Below are positions 7,273 to 62,229 of a stretch of 64,000 nucleotides of DNA, in pieces (positions within the stretch are counted from its first letter, which is position 1; each line of letters opens with the position of its first letter). A program made the position numbers and the translations under genes. Location: positions 67,527 to 131,526 of the forward strand of contig PQAE01000002.1 of the NCBI GenBank assembly GCA_003104935.1, written 5' to 3'. The notes below the pieces were generated by a model. It had not been told where the DNA came from and ran no database searches. It saw only the letters and a program-made list of their open reading frames with translations. Source of the stretch: Parcubacteria group bacterium (GTDB taxonomy: Bacteria > Patescibacteriota > Patescibacteriia > UBA1558 > GWA2-36-10).

Positions 7273-7370
7273 TGGAGCCGGTGAGAGGACTTGAACCTCC
7301 AACATATGGTTTAAAACGAAACCAGGGCTTCGTCATCCACCACTGCTCTACCAATTGAGCTACACCGGCC
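7273..7370 (-). tRNA. tRNA-like gene with a ~21-nt insertion in the anticodon loop; anticodon unassigned (possible intron-containing tRNA or pseudogene)
   Basis: Read on the minus strand, G+GCCGGTG TA GCTC-AATTGGTA-GAGC A GTGGT[28 nt]ACCAT ATGTT GGAGG-TTCAAGT-CCTCT CACCGGC T CCA. The acceptor, D and T arms are canonical and CCA is encoded. The anticodon stem GTGGT/ACCAT encloses 28 nt instead of 7. Confidence 0.55.
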
Positions 7371-20339: not shown

Positions 20340-20396
20340 AATTGAAGAGCCCTGTACCGTATGGTGCAGGGCTCTTTTTGATTGTGGCCGATGGTT

Positions 20397-30069: not shown

Positions 30070-30993
30070 ATGAATCTGCTTTCAGGAATCATTGTCATTG
30101 CCGGGCTCTGTCTATTTGAGATCATCAGTAGCATTGATAATGCCATCATCAACGCCGAGGTCTTAACCACCATGCGGCCCAAAGCGCGCCGCTGGTTTTT
30201 AATCTGGGGACTATTATTTGCTGTTTTCCTGGTACGTGGCCTCCTACCCTGGTTGATCGTCTGGGCCACTACCCCCCAACTAAATGCTTGGCAAGCCCTG
30301 ACCGCCACCTTTACCAGTGATCCCAGAGTGCTGGAGGCGGTAGAACTATCCTCACCTATGTTGCTCATCGGCGGTGGTACCTTCTTAATATTCTTGTTTT
30401 TTCACTGGTTATTTATCGAACCAAAAAACTACGGCTTCCGTGGAGAAAAATTTTTTCACGCCCAATCAGTCTGGTTTTTCGCGATAGTGGCTGTACTACT
30501 GACCCTGATCGTCTGGTTTGCCCTGCAAATTAACCCACTGATGGCTTTTGGCGCCGTTGTCGGTTCTACAGCCTTCTTTATCACTCACGGCTTTAAGCAA
30601 AACGCCGAAGTAGGAGAAAAAAATTTACTGCGCAAAAACATGTCTGATGTCAGTAAAATCCTTTACCTAGAGGTCTTGGATGCCACTTTTTCTATTGACG
30701 GCGTGCTGGGCGCCTTTGCCTTTACTTTGTCGGTGCCCTTAATATTTTTAGGCAACGGCGTCGGAGCTATAGTGGTTCGGCAAATGACCGTCGGTAATCT
30801 AGATAAAATAAAAAAATATATCTACCTCAAAAACGGGGCCATGTATTCTATTCTTTGCCTGGGAATAATTATGCTTTTAGACAGTTTTGGCTTTAACCTG
30901 CCTAGCTGGGCCTCGCCGCTAATAACCTTTGCCTCGGTCGGTTATTTTTTCTATAAATCGAAGCTGCATATTAAACAAAAAGCTGCGGCTTAA
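30070..30993 (+). CDS. TerC/DUF475-family integral membrane protein
   Basis: 307 aa, multi-TM, with EIISSIDNAIINAEVL (the TerC-type SxDN motif). Confidence 0.5.
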   Translation: MNLLSGIIVIAGLCLFEIISSIDNAIINAEVLTTMRPKARRWFLIWGLLFAVFLVRGLLPWLIVWATTPQLNAWQALTATFTSDPRVLEAVELSSPMLLIGGGTFLIFLFFHWLFIEPKNYGFRGEKFFHAQSVWFFAIVAVLLTLIVWFALQINPLMAFGAVVGSTAFFITHGFKQNAEVGEKNLLRKNMSDVSKILYLEVLDATFSIDGVLGAFAFTLSVPLIFLGNGVGAIVVRQMTVGNLDKIKKYIYLKNGAMYSILCLGIIMLLDSFGFNLPSWASPLITFASVGYFFYKSKLHIKQKAAA

Positions 30994-31005
30994 ATGTACC
31001 TTCGT

Positions 31006-31096
31006 TTTTCTGGAACGAAGTCGCGCTCAGCGTGACGAGCGATAGAAACTGGATTCTATCGCCCTGAACCTTACGGTTCATGGCTCCAGAATAGCC
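31006..31096. repeat. MITE-like element with nested inverted repeats, copy A
   Basis: Outer inverted repeat TTCTGGAAC...GGCTCCAGAA and inner inverted repeat CGATAGAA...TTCTATCG. Copy B at 38491-38576 shares both repeats. Confidence 0.5.
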
Positions 31097-31104
31097 AAAA
31101 ATTT

Positions 31105-31133
31105 TGACTTTCCCCTGTTTTTAGAGCTATAAT
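31105..31133 (+). promoter_or_regulatory. sigma70-like promoter (TTGACT-17-TATAAT)
   Basis: TTGACT at 31105-31110 and TATAAT at 31128-31133. Confidence 0.45.
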
Positions 31134-31139
31134 TATTGC

Positions 31140-31400
31140 TGTCCGGTGACTGCTGTTAGCTACCAACTAACTCCGATAATTTGCCGAAAAATTGGCTAAA
31201 TGAGTGCTCTACTTTTCTTCGAGCGAAATCGCGCTGGGCGCGATGAGTCGAGAAGCTGAGTAAAGAATTTGGGTGGAACCACCGAAAGGTGCCCTGTACC
31301 CGAACAACCCTAAAAACCCGAACGAAGTGAGCGGTTTACGGGAAGTGAGTGGTACAGGGCGAACCAATTGGTCCCAAAGCAATCTAGCTTTGGGTTATTT
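31140..31400 (+). ncRNA. structured leader/sRNA with a 3' intrinsic terminator immediately upstream of ORF 31413..31796
   Basis: Long-range helix GCCCTGTACC/GGTACAGGGC, hairpin GGTGGAACCACC, the palindrome CTTCGAGCG..CGAGAAG, and a terminator CCCAAAGC-loop-GCTTTGGG + T-run at 31373-31412. The ORF's ATG follows 12 nt after the T-run. Confidence 0.4.
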
Positions 31401-31412
31401 TAATTTAAAAAT

Positions 31413-31796
31413 ATGTGCACAATTACAAGCTTTTTGGAATTATTAAATAAATACTCTGGTTTAATAACTGCCGTGACATTGATATTTGGCAGTTTATGGG
31501 GAATTGTAAAATTTAGAGAACATATAAAAGACAAACGTTTTAATACATACCATAAATTAATTGATGAATTAGTAAACGAACAAATACAACCCGACAGAAA
31601 AATTAAGCTTGATCGTCAAATAGCGATAATTTATGAATTAAGAAGCTTCACAAATTATTTTGGTGTTTCAGCTAGAATACTAGATGGTTTAAAAAAAGAG
31701 TGGTCAAACGGAAACGAAAGAGTAATGGTTGAGATTGATCTGTCACTTGCTTACATGAGAAAAAATTGGTTGTGTAGACTAATAAAAAATAAATAA
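31413..31796 (+). CDS. hypothetical protein, AT-rich orphan ORF with an N-terminal TM helix
   Basis: 127 aa, ~32% GC, between repeat elements and thrS. No recognised motif. Confidence 0.4.
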   Translation: MCTITSFLELLNKYSGLITAVTLIFGSLWGIVKFREHIKDKRFNTYHKLIDELVNEQIQPDRKIKLDRQIAIIYELRSFTNYFGVSARILDGLKKEWSNGNERVMVEIDLSLAYMRKNWLCRLIKNK

Positions 31797-31839
31797 ACGA
31801 ACTGCGCACAAAACGCTATTATCTTAATCAATTAAAATT

Positions 31840-33597
31840 ATGAATAACTCAAAATTGGACCACATTCGCCACTCGCTCTCCCATATCTTGGCCATGGCCG
31901 TGCTAAAAAAATTTCCCGATGCTAAATTAGGCATTGGGCCGACTATAGATAACGGCTTTTATTATGATTTTCTCTTGCCCGATAAACTGTCCGAGGAAGA
32001 TTTGCCGGAATTGGAAAAATCCATGCGCCAGATCATCGGCCAAAAAATAGACTTTAAGAAATCCGTTTTGTCCCGCGCTGAAGCCCTGAAAAAAGTGTCG
32101 GCGAACAAACAGAACTTCAAAGAGGAATTAATCAATGATTTGCCCGAAAATGAGGAAATAAGCTTTTATGAGTCCGACGATTTTACCGACCTTTGTGCCG
32201 GCCCGCATGTTGAAAACAGCTCGGAAATAAATACGGAGAGTTTTAAACTGACGCATCTGGCCGGAGCTTATTGGCGCGGCGATGACACCAGAGACATGCT
32301 GACCAGAATTTATGGTGTGGCTTTTAACAATAAAAATGAACTGGCTGAACACCTGAAAATGCTGGAGGAAGCCAAGCTACGCGATCACCGCAAACTGGGT
32401 AAAGAATTGGATTTATTTACTTTTTCCGATATGATCGGCGGCGGTCTACCGGTCTGGCTACCCCACGGCACAGTCCTGCGCGATGAGCTGGAAAAACTGG
32501 CCAAAGAAACCGAATTTCAATGCGGCTATGAGCGCGTTTCCACCCCCGTTATTAGCAAAGAAGCCTTGTTTCTGAAAAGTGGCCATCTGCCTCATTATAA
32601 AGAAAGTATGTATGCGCCGATGGATATTGACGGCGAGGATTACTATATCAAGCCGATGAACTGCCCCTTTCACCATGTCGTTTTCCAGAGCAAGATGCGC
32701 AGTTATCGTGAATTGCCTCTGCGTCTAGCCGAATACGGCCTCTGCCACCGCTACGAAAAATCCGGCGAGCTGCAGGGACTGATGCGCGTGCGTAGTATGT
32801 GTATGAATGACGCTCACATCTATGTCCGACCGGATCAGGTCAAAGAGGAAATCAAACAGGTCATCCAGATGCACCAGTATTATTATAATTTGTTTGGCAT
32901 TGATAAGGTCAGTTTCCGCTTGTCCAAGCATGATCCGGCTGATTTGGGCGGCAAATATGTTAATATGCCCCAAGAATGGGCGGACAATGAACAGATCCTG
33001 CGCGAAGTACTGACCGAAATGAAAGTAGACTTTTTTGAAGCGGAAAACGAAGCCTCTTTTTACGGACCAAAGATCGACGTGCAGATTTTCTCCGCCATCG
33101 GCAAAGAATACACTATCGGCACGGTCCAGCTGGACTTTGCTCAGCCGCAAAAATTTGAGCTAAAATATACTGATGAGACTGGTAAAGAAGTAATGCCCTA
33201 TTGTATCCACCGCGCTCCTCTATCAGTACATGAACGGTTTATTGCTTTTCTGATCGAACATTTTGGTGCCAACTTTCCGCTATGGTTATCGCCGGTGCAA
33301 GTCAGAATAAACTCGGTGGCGGACAAACACAGCGAGTTTTGCCAAAATTTAGGCCAAGAATTGAAGAAACATTTTATCCGGGTCCAAGTCGATCTCAGTG
33401 CCGAGACTGTCGGCAACAAAATCCGTAAGAGTGCCAAAGAAAAAATTCCCTATACGCTGGTAATCGGCGACAAAGAAATGGCTTCAGACAAACTAGCCGT
33501 GCGCGTGCGTGGGCAAGAAAAGCTCTGGGAAGTGAGTAAAGATGATTTTATTAGAAACATAAGCGAAAACATCAAACAACGTAAATTAGAATTATGA
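31840..33597 (+). CDS. thrS: threonyl-tRNA synthetase
   Basis: 585 aa with DHRKLGKELDLF and the class II motifs. The N-terminal region is short. Confidence 0.9.
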   Translation: MNNSKLDHIRHSLSHILAMAVLKKFPDAKLGIGPTIDNGFYYDFLLPDKLSEEDLPELEKSMRQIIGQKIDFKKSVLSRAEALKKVSANKQNFKEELINDLPENEEISFYESDDFTDLCAGPHVENSSEINTESFKLTHLAGAYWRGDDTRDMLTRIYGVAFNNKNELAEHLKMLEEAKLRDHRKLGKELDLFTFSDMIGGGLPVWLPHGTVLRDELEKLAKETEFQCGYERVSTPVISKEALFLKSGHLPHYKESMYAPMDIDGEDYYIKPMNCPFHHVVFQSKMRSYRELPLRLAEYGLCHRYEKSGELQGLMRVRSMCMNDAHIYVRPDQVKEEIKQVIQMHQYYYNLFGIDKVSFRLSKHDPADLGGKYVNMPQEWADNEQILREVLTEMKVDFFEAENEASFYGPKIDVQIFSAIGKEYTIGTVQLDFAQPQKFELKYTDETGKEVMPYCIHRAPLSVHERFIAFLIEHFGANFPLWLSPVQVRINSVADKHSEFCQNLGQELKKHFIRVQVDLSAETVGNKIRKSAKEKIPYTLVIGDKEMASDKLAVRVRGQEKLWEVSKDDFIRNISENIKQRKLEL

Positions 33598-35015
33598 TAA
33601 ATATTCCTCAGGCCTTGACCTATGACGACGTGCTTTTGGTCCCGAAAAAATCCACGATCAGCTCACGCAGTCAGGTCAATACCACTACTAAAATATCTCG
33701 AAATCTGGGGCTAAAGATTCCCTTGGTCAGTGCCAACATGGACACCGTTACCGAAAGCCAAATGGCTATAGCCATGGCTCTGTCCGGGGGCCTCGGTGTA
33801 ATTCACCGCTTTTGCGATGTCACCAGGCAGGCGCGAGAAGTAGCTCGGGTTAAACGTAAACAAAATATTGTTATTGATCATCCTTTTACCGTGTCCCCGG
33901 AAGAAAATCTAGCCGCGGTCAAGGCTAAGATTATTGAGCATAATTGCAAAAGTTTTTTGGTCAGCGACCGGGAAAATAATCTCTTGGGAATACTCACCAA
34001 CCGCGACATAAAATTTGTCAAAGACGAACAGACTTTGGTCCGAGATATGATGACAGCAAAAGAAAAGCTGATTACCGCCCGCGATGGTATCAGTCCGGAA
34101 GCGGCCAAGGAACTTTTAACCAAACATAAAATTGAAAAACTGCCATTAGTAGATGAAAATTTTAAAATTAAAGGACTGATTACGGCGGCGGATTTTCTCA
34201 ATCATTTTAATAACAATCAAGCGGCCAAAGATAATAAAGGACGGCTCTTGGTCGGAGCGGCCATCGGCGTACGCGGTGATTATATGGAACGGGTAGATGC
34301 TCTGGTCAAGGCCGAGGTTGATTTATTAGTCTTGGACATTGCTCACGGACATTCCGAAATCGCTATCAAGGCGATCAAAGAAATCAAAACTAAATATCCT
34401 CAAATGGAGCTAGTCGGCGGCAATGTGGCTACTCGCGAAGGCGCGGAAGATTTAATTCAGGCCGGAGTGGATGCCATCAAAGTTGGCATTGGGTCGGGTT
34501 CAATCTGCACCACGCGGACAACTACCGGCTTTGGTGTGCCGCAGCTTACAGCCATTATGAACGCCTCCCAGTCCTGCCGCAAACATAATATTCCTCTGAT
34601 TGCCGACAGCGGCATTCGTAAGCCGGCCGATATTGTAAAGGCCTTAGCCGCCGGCGCGGACACGGTCATGATTGGCGGACAATTTGCCGGCACCGATGAA
34701 GCTCCCGGACCGATTATCACTTACCAGGGAAGACGCTACAAGATATCACGCGGCATGGCTTCTCTGACCGCCGCTCTCTCCCGCCCTGATGCCAAAGAAA
34801 ATCTCAGCCAGATTACTCCCGAGGGTATAGAAGCCCGCGTGCCCTATCGCGGACCGGTACAAAACATTATTGACCTATTTATGGGGGGACTGCGCTCCGG
34901 TATGAGTTATGGCAATGCTCAGACTATCGCCGAACTGCGCGAACACGCCGAGTTTATCCAGATCACGGCCGCGGGATCAATAGAATCCGGTTCGCATGAT
35001 AATGAATTGTTATAA
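33594..35015 (+). CDS. guaB: IMP dehydrogenase
   Basis: 473 aa with SANMDTVTE, the catalytic loop [11 protein letters not shown] and an inserted CBS pair. Confidence 0.9.
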
Positions 35016-48656: not shown

Positions 48657-49040
48657 GGGGATGTCTTTATTCGATGTCAGATGAAGTGATTTGTGGCAAG
48701 CGGAGTCTGCTATCTCCTTAAAAAGGCTAACAAAATAAGTGCCAAAAACTTATTTGCCAAAGTCCAGGGACTGTTCGCAGTTCCGAGACTGGCCCCAGTT
48801 TTAGCATAAATTTGCTGAAACCATCTCTAGCCAGGTTCGCCTGAGACGGGCTACGGGGTGTCATTTATCGGGATAGAAATAATTCGCGCCGACCGGATTA
48901 TTTCGAAACTAAGATCGGCTGGATGATCAGTGTTTTGCTAATTTTTAAGCTGATGATCGAGAACCAAAAAATTAACTAAGCTTGTAGAAATAAATCAGGA
49001 CATTTGTCAGACAGGGGTGTAATACCCCTCATCTCCACCA
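48657..49040 (+). ncRNA. ssrA: tmRNA (transfer-messenger RNA)
   Basis: 5' GGGGATG..TTCGATG and 3' AGGGG-TGTAATA-CCCCT CATCTCC A CCA. The acceptor stem has the G3-U70 Ala identity pair and a discriminator A. A candidate tag reading frame ends ...GCAGTTCCGAGACTGGCCCCAGTTTTAGCATAA (AVPRLAPVLA*). It is adjacent to smpB. The T-loop is atypical. Confidence 0.65.
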
Positions 49041-61119: not shown

Positions 61120-62229
61120 TTACGAAGTTTGCAAACCGCCGATCAGACTGTAAATGGGAAGAATAACCGCCAAAGCTACCGTTACTACTCCCAACCAGAC
61201 TATGACCAGTAAAATCGGCTCCAGTATTACCGCCAAATTTTTTGTGGTTAGCTCGGTCTTACCTTCATAGACCCGGCTGATAGATAGCAGGGTGTCCGGC
61301 AGAGTGCCTGATTTTTCTCCGGTGATGACCAACTGCTGGATCGGTGTCGGCAAAAGGCGTTTTATATTTTTATAATTGGCGAAACTTTTTTGAAAAGAAT
61401 TTCCGTCTTCGATATTGCGCACCAAAAATTCATAAAACCTGCGATAAGGCGGAAAAGAAGTGGCCTGAGACAAAGAGCTGATCGCCTGGGTGACGGGCAG
61501 ACCGGCCTGTAGCAGAGTACCCAGTAGAAAACCAAAACGGGAAATTTCTACTTCCTGAACCAGCCGCCCGACTCCGGGTACGATAAAAAGAAAACCCTGG
61601 CCCAATGCCTTGGTTCGGGGAAAATAAAAAATAAAATATATCAGCAGGGCTAAGACAACGATGGTGATAGGCACCACCACGGTTCCGTGTTGCCCCAGAT
61701 ATTTACCCAGGCCGATGATTATCTGGGTAATAAGAGGCAGTTTGACCCGCAACTGGGAAAAAACTACCGCTAGTTTTGGCAAAATAAACCAGGCAATACC
61801 AATACCTATAATGACGGTCAGCGCCAGCACAAAAACCGGATACATCATGGCCGAACGGATCTTGGCCTGAAAATTACGGGATTTTTCCTGCTCCAGACTG
61901 ACCACCCGCAGATTTTCCGCCAGATTACCAGAGTCTTCCCCTACTCTGATGATGGAAATGGTATACTCGGGGAAAAGGCGGGCCGCTTCCAGAGAGCTCC
62001 ACAGCGAGGAACCGGCCTCGATATTTTCTCTAATCTCACCGAGTACTAGGTGCATACGCTGGGAACGCATATCGGTCTGCAAAGCTTCTAGGGCATCTAA
62101 AATATTCATGCCCGATCCCACCAGCAAGCTGAGATTTTCTACAAAGTATTGCTTTTCTTCGCCCACTCTCCAATTTGATAACGTCGACCAAAAAGAAGAA
62201 CGAACTATTTGTTTATTTGGTTTTGGCAT
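61120..62229 (-). CDS. pilC: type IV pilus assembly platform protein (GspF/PilC family)
   Basis: 369 aa with three TM helices and duplicated GspF-like cytoplasmic domains. Confidence 0.85.
   Translation of the reverse strand: MPKPNKQIVRSSFWSTLSNWRVGEEKQYFVENLSLLVGSGMNILDALEALQTDMRSQRMHLVLGEIRENIEAGSSLWSSLEAARLFPEYTISIIRVGEDSGNLAENLRVVSLEQEKSRNFQAKIRSAMMYPVFVLALTVIIGIGIAWFILPKLAVVFSQLRVKLPLITQIIIGLGKYLGQHGTVVVPITIVVLALLIYFIFYFPRTKALGQGFLFIVPGVGRLVQEVEISRFGFLLGTLLQAGLPVTQAISSLSQATSFPPYRRFYEFLVRNIEDGNSFQKSFANYKNIKRLLPTPIQQLVITGEKSGTLPDTLLSISRVYEGKTELTTKNLAVILEPILLVIVWLGVVTVALAVILPIYSLIGGLQTS

Follow-up and report, generated by a model that had tools for sequence, protein, structure and literature searches.

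Canonical transcriptional T-box riboswitches, represented in Rfam by family RF00230 and in Bacillus by the thrS and tyrS leaders, have a UGGN bulge, an antiterminator of helices A1 and A2 that shares its 3' strand with a terminator, a specifier that matches the synthetase encoded downstream (ACC for thrS) and a Stem III whose 5' flank is rich in purines. Contact with the tRNA elbow has been called essential for transcriptional T-boxes, where it serves fast tRNA capture, and Stem II is considered essential if Stem I is truncated (PMC7583486). Ultrashort versions of Stem I are found in the ileS T-boxes of Actinobacteria (Sherwood et al. 2015 as summarised in PMC7583486 and PMC11297988). These lack the elbow-binding motif and decode with the specifier end only; they are translational, sequester the Shine-Dalgarno sequence and need the full Stem II S-turn and the Stem IIA/B pseudoknot. 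The glyQS T-boxes have neither Stem II nor Stem IIA/B and rely on strong codon-anticodon pairing, with a long Stem I and its elbow-binding platform kept. In all staphylococci the glyS T-box carries an insertion of 42 nt in the A2 arm, stem Sa, which was shown to affect tRNA selectivity (PMC9177973). Here we describe a leader at about 31140-31406 of a stretch of 64,000 nt (the window) of contig PQAE01000002.1, from a Parcubacteria/Paceibacterota metagenome-assembled genome (locus tags C3F02_*) of the Candidate Phyla Radiation (CPR). This leader is very probably a tRNA-Thr-specific T-box riboswitch that acts by transcription antitermination, with the AT-rich open reading frame (ORF) of 127 amino acids that follows it as a co-regulated passenger.

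In a preliminary description the region had been read as a structured transcription-attenuation leader with a terminator before its first gene. A T-box was among the three options named there, and no riboswitch class could be matched. The structured nature of the leader was borne out, as it folds far better than shuffled sequence (minimum free energy, MFE, -91 kcal/mol; z = -4.35; 0 of 200 shuffles as good). At the gathering threshold Rfam gave no match in the region. A relaxed search returned the T-box family RF00230 with 15.2-15.8 bits (E 0.27-0.57; gathering cut-off 93), and the confident part of the alignment sets AAUUUGGGUGGAACC on the T-box sequence. Because thrS lies just downstream of this suggestive match, relatives of its product, threonyl-tRNA synthetase (ThrRS), were fetched. 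About 50 of them, from Chloroflexi, Bacillota, Saccharibacteria and Paceibacterota, have GGGUGGAACC(A/G)CG directly 5' of thrS, and the bulge is UGGA in all of these T-boxes, as in the window. The class is no longer unmatched: the leader has the AGGGUGGNACCGCG-like conserved sequence with a 7-nt UGGNACC bulge by which T-boxes are recognised, a Thr specifier and an overlap of antiterminator and terminator. The gathering score of 93 was reached by only three of about 13 evident thrS T-boxes, and CPR thrS leaders obtained 34-42 bits or fell below E = 1; a score below the Rfam cut-off therefore says little.

Two covariance models were built with the window left out. The discriminator model, R1, was made from 32 thrS T-boxes. 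Covariation was evident in both of its helices, A1 and A2, with a score that none of 500 shuffles reached, and within the 64-kb window the model matched best at 31260-31314 (19 bits, E 0.006). A second R1 match at 61657-61697 was discarded as spurious, as it lies inside a 369-aa ORF and has no UGG. The Stem I model, R2, has its best match in the window at 31155-31171; what appears to count for this match is its position on the same strand, 105 nt upstream of the best discriminator match.

The elements of the leader are listed in Table 1. As specifier, the Thr codon ACC (31162-31164) with an A after it (31165) is placed in the 7-nt terminal loop CUACCAA of an ultrashort Stem I. This loop, C-U-ACC-A-A, is laid out as an anticodon loop, with a pyrimidine at 32, U33, three bases and a purine at 37; by analogy, the specifier loop is suggested to recognise the tRNA anticodon by loop-loop 'kissing'. 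Stem I spans 31145-31171 at most. The place expected for Stem II and the IIA/B pseudoknot is taken by a short linker domain, so that about 30-34 nt lie between Stem I and Stem III; the linker motifs CUAAA and AAUGAGUGC were found again in the leaders of two relatives, L169 and L015. The 'large palindrome' of the preliminary description is likely to be the Stem III hairpin at 31217-31254, and the hairpin proposed there for GGTGGAACCACC (31272-31283) is impossible, since its loop would be 2 nt; this segment corresponds to the T-box sequence, including the UGGAACC bulge. The T-box consists of the A1 5' strand UUUGGG (31268-31273), the 7-nt bulge UGGAACC (31274-31280) and the A2 5' strand ACCGA (31281-31285). 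The 47-nt hairpin element that lengthens Stem III (CGAA-GC-rich stem-GAG) has a second copy at 31005-31051, 207 nt upstream, 5' of the promoter and outside the transcript (local alignment score 40 versus 16.8 ± 2.8 for shuffled sequence; 0 of 500 as high). A tandem or duplicated T-box 5' of the promoter was rejected, as the likeness is confined to this one element.

The preliminary description had recommended a search for a pairing alternative to the 5' half of the terminator, and such a pairing was found, UUUGGG (31268-73) with CCCAAA (31373-78). With the antiterminator of L169 as guide, the antiterminator of the window could be assigned around the insertion as an A1 of 6 bp without mismatch, a bulge of 7 nt and an A2 of 5 bp. 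CCCAAA at 31373-78 is common to the A1 3' strand and the terminator 5' arm; the two pairings are therefore mutually exclusive, and from its sequence CCCAAA is the predicted switching segment. In constrained folding the antiterminator state reached -47.6 and the terminator state -54.6 kcal/mol, a difference of 7.0 (7.0-7.5) kcal/mol; the cost of the antiterminator in the other five leaders was 8.2-17.7 kcal/mol. A local antiterminator of 3 bp, GGG (31271-73) with CCC (31292-94), was rejected, being 9 kcal/mol worse and having no contact with the terminator. The terminator is an 8-bp GC-rich hairpin followed by a U-tract, as RNA CCCAAAGC-AAUCUA-GCUUUGGG + UUAUUUUAAUUU, and the hairpin alone has -12.1 kcal/mol. 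Its presence before the ATG had been reported correctly; the distance is not the 12 nt given then, as the stem ends 18 nt and the T-run 6 nt before the ATG at 31413. No Shine-Dalgarno-like sequence is involved in the terminator hairpin, and there is no ribosome-binding-site sequestration as in translational T-boxes.

The loop of A2 is occupied by an extension of about 82 nt that holds a long-range helix, GCCCUGUACC/GGUACAGGGC. GCCCTGTACC (31291-31300) does pair with GGTACAGGGC (31351-31360), as had been noticed before; rather than forming an independent sensor domain, this helix prolongs the A2 arm of the antiterminator. When the extension was swapped in silico for GAAA the switch energy was 7.4 kcal/mol versus 7.0 with it, and in this model the extension is energetically neutral for the switch. 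Among the available sequences it was seen in this genome only. An origin of the extension as a miniature inverted-repeat transposable element (MITE) was not supported: BLAST against the window and 177 loci revealed no further copy, and only the 10-nt arms recur, matching hairpins at 20345-20380, 31061-31084 and L169:1-21. The recurring arms at these three sites and at 31291-31360 read GCCCTGTACC/GGT(A/G)CAGGGC. The hairpin at 20345-20380 is a genuine terminator with a T-run, 3' of a gene. Contigs L168 and L169 both end in the recurring hairpin element, which suggests repeats in that genome.

The closest ThrRS relative, L168/L169, is 76% identical, and its leader matches that of the window piece by piece. 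L169 shares the hairpin and GGCTCCAGAA 5' of the promoter, TTGACT-18-TATAAT, the loop core CUACCAA, the linker AAUGAGUGC and UUGGGUGGAACC; the terminator is identical over 30 nt in L168/L169, and the L169 ATG follows 19 nt past the stem. The antiterminator of L169 is canonical (A1 UUGGG/CCCAA, A2 UCCU/AGGA, 11-nt loop), and its CCCAA doubles as the first part of the terminator. The Stem I loop core was present at the same place, 80-140 nt 5' of the UGGA T-box, in five other leaders, of which L169, L170, L171 and L173 are from Paceibacterota (ThrRS 63-76% identical) and L015 is from Saccharibacteria. Across the six leaders the Stem I hairpin covaries: its sequences differ and 29 of 30 cells are paired, with three to four pair types at four of the five positions. 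In the Rfam alignment of L171 a textbook K-turn and a lower Stem I are seen, and a 7-nt loop replaces 76 model positions; its 3' part has no Stem II and continues with the IIA/B pseudoknot, Stem III and the discriminator. Judged from these alignments, the minimal architecture is common to a small CPR clade. As a refutation of its reading, the preliminary description had named a leader wholly derived from MITEs and not conserved. Instead, the core is conserved, and lineage specificity is confined to the two hairpin insertions.

In other Paceibacterota, L175-L177, the Stem I of the thrS T-box is of the normal, long kind, and the specifier is also ACC; both forms therefore coexist in the phylum. 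In L177 (2790-3005) 3 nt separate the end of the A1 3' strand from the thrS ATG, and a terminator was not seen; this thrS T-box may be translational. The closest ThrRS loci of the species-genome collection, L001 and L002, have thrS without a leader, behind short AT-rich spacers with TATAAT. These leaderless loci had first suggested that the T-box might be spurious, which was overturned by closer and sister relatives from the protein search.

Regulation by this leader could proceed as follows. Transcription would begin at the TTGACT/TATAAT promoter, with a start at about 31140. The GGU anticodon of tRNA-Thr would pair with the specifier ACC in the 7-nt loop of the very short Stem I, and the UCCA 3' end of the uncharged tRNA with UGGA of the T-box bulge. 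This tRNA pairing would stabilise the antiterminator, consisting of A1 UUUGGG/CCCAAA and A2 ACCGA/UUGGU with the A2 extension on top. The antiterminator would keep CCCAAA from the terminator, and polymerase would read into the 127-aa ORF, thrS and guaB. With charged tRNA, or with none, formation of the terminator (31373-31394) would stop transcription before the ORF. The predicted cognate target of the T-box is thrS at 31840, 430 bases downstream. A consensus scan of the + strand revealed no promoter-like or terminator-like site at 31394-32282 and no site with at least 9 of 12 promoter consensus matches from 31134 to 32281. As no such site was found between the leader terminator and thrS, the leader, the ORF, thrS and guaB are likely to form one transcription unit. 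The coupling of thrS and guaB is also present in L169.

All the traits of canonical T-boxes listed above recur in this leader. In contrast to them, its Stem I is a 5-bp hairpin without specifier internal loop, AG bulge and distal loop, and it therefore has no platform for the tRNA elbow; furthermore, its Stem II region measures only about 30 nt, its A2 arm is longer by about 82 nt and it attains 15 bits versus the cut-off of 93. With the Actinobacterial ileS T-boxes it shares the truncated Stem I without elbow-binding motif and the decoding by the specifier end only. However, intrinsic terminators stand at the ends of this leader and of its CPR relatives, Stem II is missing altogether from at least L171, and the phylum and the amino acid (Thr) differ. 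A lineage-specific hairpin insertion in A2 and the failure of standard search tools to detect the T-box are common to this leader and the staphylococcal glyS T-box (PMC9177973), whereas the extension described here measures about 82 nt, as opposed to 42 nt in stem Sa, and is limited to a single genome among the available sequences. A lack of Stem II as well as of IIA/B and the reliance on strong codon-anticodon pairing would be as in glyQS, which, unlike this leader, has kept the long Stem I with its platform. As far as the sequences tell, the combination of a hairpin-only Stem I, an intrinsic terminator and a reduced Stem II region contrasts with the T-box classes described in the literature surveyed. 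No paper linking T-boxes with CPR/Patescibacteria was found in that literature, the coverage of which was partial, and TBDB may contain such sequences.

We tentatively propose that CPR bacteria (Paceibacterota, Saccharibacteria) might carry a minimal class of transcriptional T-boxes, in which Stem I is a mimic of an anticodon stem-loop, the elbow platform and Stem II are missing and intrinsic terminators are used. The A2 extension may widen the kinetic window, as the A1 3' strand and the terminator would be transcribed later, and could offset a slower tRNA capture. Such a class, if true, contradicts the reviewed view on the need for elbow contact. The six CPR leaders would then be natural minimal constructs for finding out how much of a T-box is needed for co-transcriptional tRNA sensing.

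Several observations weigh against a functional tRNA-Thr T-box. The Rfam T-box alignment covers the discriminator only, with about 15 bits, and the R2 match to Stem I (13.6 bits, E 0.65) is not significant alone. R1 closes A1 on CCCUAAA inside the insert and not on 31373-78, because the covariance model cannot span the 82-nt loop. By inspection, no K-turn at the base of Stem I, no Stem II S-turn and no IIA/B pseudoknot were recognised in the window. The unconstrained MFE structure is without the Stem I hairpin; instead, ACCAA (31162-66) pairs with UUGGU (31368-72). The A2 3' strand UUGGU (31368-31372) thus resembles the tRNA-Thr anticodon, and its pairing with ACCAA may be accidental or may serve self-inhibition in the terminator state. 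The UGGA bulge predicts U73 as the tRNA discriminator base; a tRNA-Thr gene with which to confirm U73 and the predicted GGU anticodon was found neither in the window nor in 17 loci. Finally, the consensus scan could miss a weak thrS-proximal promoter within the AT-rich ORF.

Some of these points would also be expected if the leader were a decayed relic, in which the motifs are kept by descent, tRNA-dependent switching is lost and a constitutive partial terminator or a long 5' untranslated region remains. Switching would then have been abolished by the hairpins inserted into Stem III and A2 together with the loss of Stem I and Stem II elements. The very low Rfam score, the two lineage-specific insertions, the failure to find a K-turn and Stem II in the window, and the relatives L001 and L002 that manage without any thrS leader are consistent with decay, which we nevertheless regard as unlikely. 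The switching elements are all intact (6-bp A1, exact UGGAACC bulge, 5-bp A2), and the A2 sequence differs from that of L169 with the pairing kept. The extension is energetically neutral, and staphylococcal glyS T-boxes tolerate insertions in the A2 arm, which are functional there (PMC9177973). Moreover, a strong terminator lies before an essential gene for which no downstream promoter was detected, which argues that an antitermination route is needed.

It is more doubtful still that a working T-box controls the inserted ORF only, with thrS-guaB expressed mainly from an unrecognised promoter in the ORF or in the 43-nt spacer. Promoter-like sequences are common in AT-rich DNA, TATTAT occurs at 31811-31816, and thrS of L001 and L002 is driven from short AT-rich spacers with TATAAT. 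However, the + strand has no site with at least 9 of 12 matches over 31134-32281, a sensible link between tRNA-Thr charging and the ORF is missing, and the genes inserted in L169 and L175 are likewise not followed by a terminator before thrS. Hardly credible is the idea that the orphan membrane ORF, to which the preliminary description had tied the leader, has a metabolite riboswitch of a new kind or a protein-dependent attenuator of its own. The position of the terminator directly before the ORF ATG and the lack of an Rfam match at the gathering threshold would suit it; it is contradicted by the presence of all T-box hallmarks and by orthologous thrS leaders whose first gene is a different one or thrS itself. 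Homologues of the ORF occur in unrelated contexts as well. In three of them the gene follows a radical-SAM gene, a NUDIX gene or lexA, with upstream gaps of 1-73 nt, and no leader, T-box motif or nearby thrS was present at these loci.

The ORF itself is, from its conservation, a real gene. Its length of 127 aa had been given correctly; its GC content is 28.9% and not 32%, compared with 45-46% in the flanking genes. Twenty-one homologues were found in Patescibacteria, with E down to 5e-49, and one homologue, P0001, is 99% identical. A strongly conserved core, KDKRFxTYHKLIDELVNEQ...KLDRQIAIIYELRNF, follows the hydrophobic N-terminus. No family match was obtained with Pfam, NCBIfam or PADLOC. The AlphaFold model is all-alpha, with a pLDDT of 75, and had no fold match in PDB. 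Its low GC content makes the ORF look like an acquired passenger, inserted between the leader and thrS and presumably regulated along with the latter. What appeared as an orphan riboswitch before an orphan gene would thus be a thrS T-box missed by the Rfam cut-off, and CPR genomes probably contain further unannotated T-boxes.

Table 1. Positions of the leader elements and neighbouring genes in the 64,000-nt window
Feature	Position	Strand	Remarks
TerC/DUF475 membrane-protein gene	30070-30993		5' neighbour of the region
Four-hairpin cluster	31000..31092	+	between TerC/DUF475 gene and promoter
Sigma-70-type promoter, TTGACT-18 nt-TATAAT	31104..31133	+	consensus matches 11/12; same hexamers and spacer in L169
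Upstream motif GGUGA	31145-31149	+	precedes Stem I
Ultrashort Stem I, GUUAG-CUACCAA-CUAAC	31155..31171	+	5-bp hairpin, 7-nt loop 31160-31166
Short linker domain	31176..31206	+	hairpin GCCGA-AAAA-UUGGC (31183-31196), motif CUAAA, purine-rich AAUGAGUG
Stem III	31206..31262	+	lengthened by 47-nt hairpin element (31212-31258)
T-box sequence	31266..31285	+	AAUUUGGGUGGAACC at 31266-31280; UUUGGGUGGAACCACC at 31268-31283
Extension of A2 arm, ~82 nt	31286..31367	+	absent from L169
A2 3' strand UUGGU (31368-31372) and A1 3' strand CCCAAA (31373-31378)	31368..31378	+	constrained folding
Intrinsic terminator, CCCAAAGC-AATCTA-GCTTTGGG, then TTATTTTAATTT	31373..31406	+	hairpin 31373-31394
127-aa ORF	31413..31796	+	conserved Patescibacteria small protein, N-terminal hydrophobic helix
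thrS, threonyl-tRNA synthetase	31840..33597	+	43 nt 3' of 127-aa ORF
guaB, IMP dehydrogenase	33594..35015	+	start overlaps thrS stop by 4 nt

The promoter hexamers TTGACT (31104-31109) and TATAAT (31128-31133) are those of the preliminary description, and the spacer counts 18 nt instead of 17. The last hairpin of the cluster 5' of the promoter is CCCTGAACC-TTAC-GGTTCATGG, then CTCCAGAA, a segment that is kept in L169:1-30.

In L169 and L175 genes are inserted between the T-box and thrS, with no terminator before thrS, and the T-box-thrS spacer is, on the sequences compared, an insertion hot spot in this phylum. In L169 (230-4278, a Logan SRR29748427 contig) the T-box heads a Ser-hydrolase-like gene and the genes for a 252-aa RelA_SpoT-domain protein and a 239-aa protein, followed by thrS and guaB. 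An enzyme resembling a small alarmone synthetase ((p)ppGpp-type) would thus be placed under the control of uncharged tRNA. A P-loop kinase/Zeta-toxin-like gene lies between the T-box and thrS in L175/L176 (L175:1700-1890). MITE-like palindromic elements were found between the T-box terminator and thrS at L170:2880-2980, L171:2200-2350 and L173:2700-2900, with the sequences GTCATTGCG...CGCAATGAC and CTGTCATTCTGAACGG...CGTTCAGAATGACAG. The spacer would therefore be a landing site for MITE-like elements, a kinase-like gene, a RelA/SpoT-type gene and the AT-rich membrane ORF; unrelated genes that land there would be brought under amino-acid-starvation control. In the Chloroflexi L006, L030, L064 and L074 a tRNA-Val(GAC) gene lies directly 5' of the thrS T-box, about 250-600 nt from thrS.

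Elsewhere in the window, an ordinary transfer-messenger RNA gene is located at 48657-49040 (Rfam 124.6 bits). A tRNA gene at 7273-7369 on the - strand (Rfam 54.9 bits) has an anticodon-loop region of 28 nt. ARAGORN recognised it as tRNA-Lys(UUU) only after removal of a 21-nt insertion (gatgacgaagccctggtttcg) at position 32/33. The insert lengthens the anticodon arm as an 8-bp hairpin, which is odd in a bacterial tRNA, and recalls the hairpin insertions in T-box loops.

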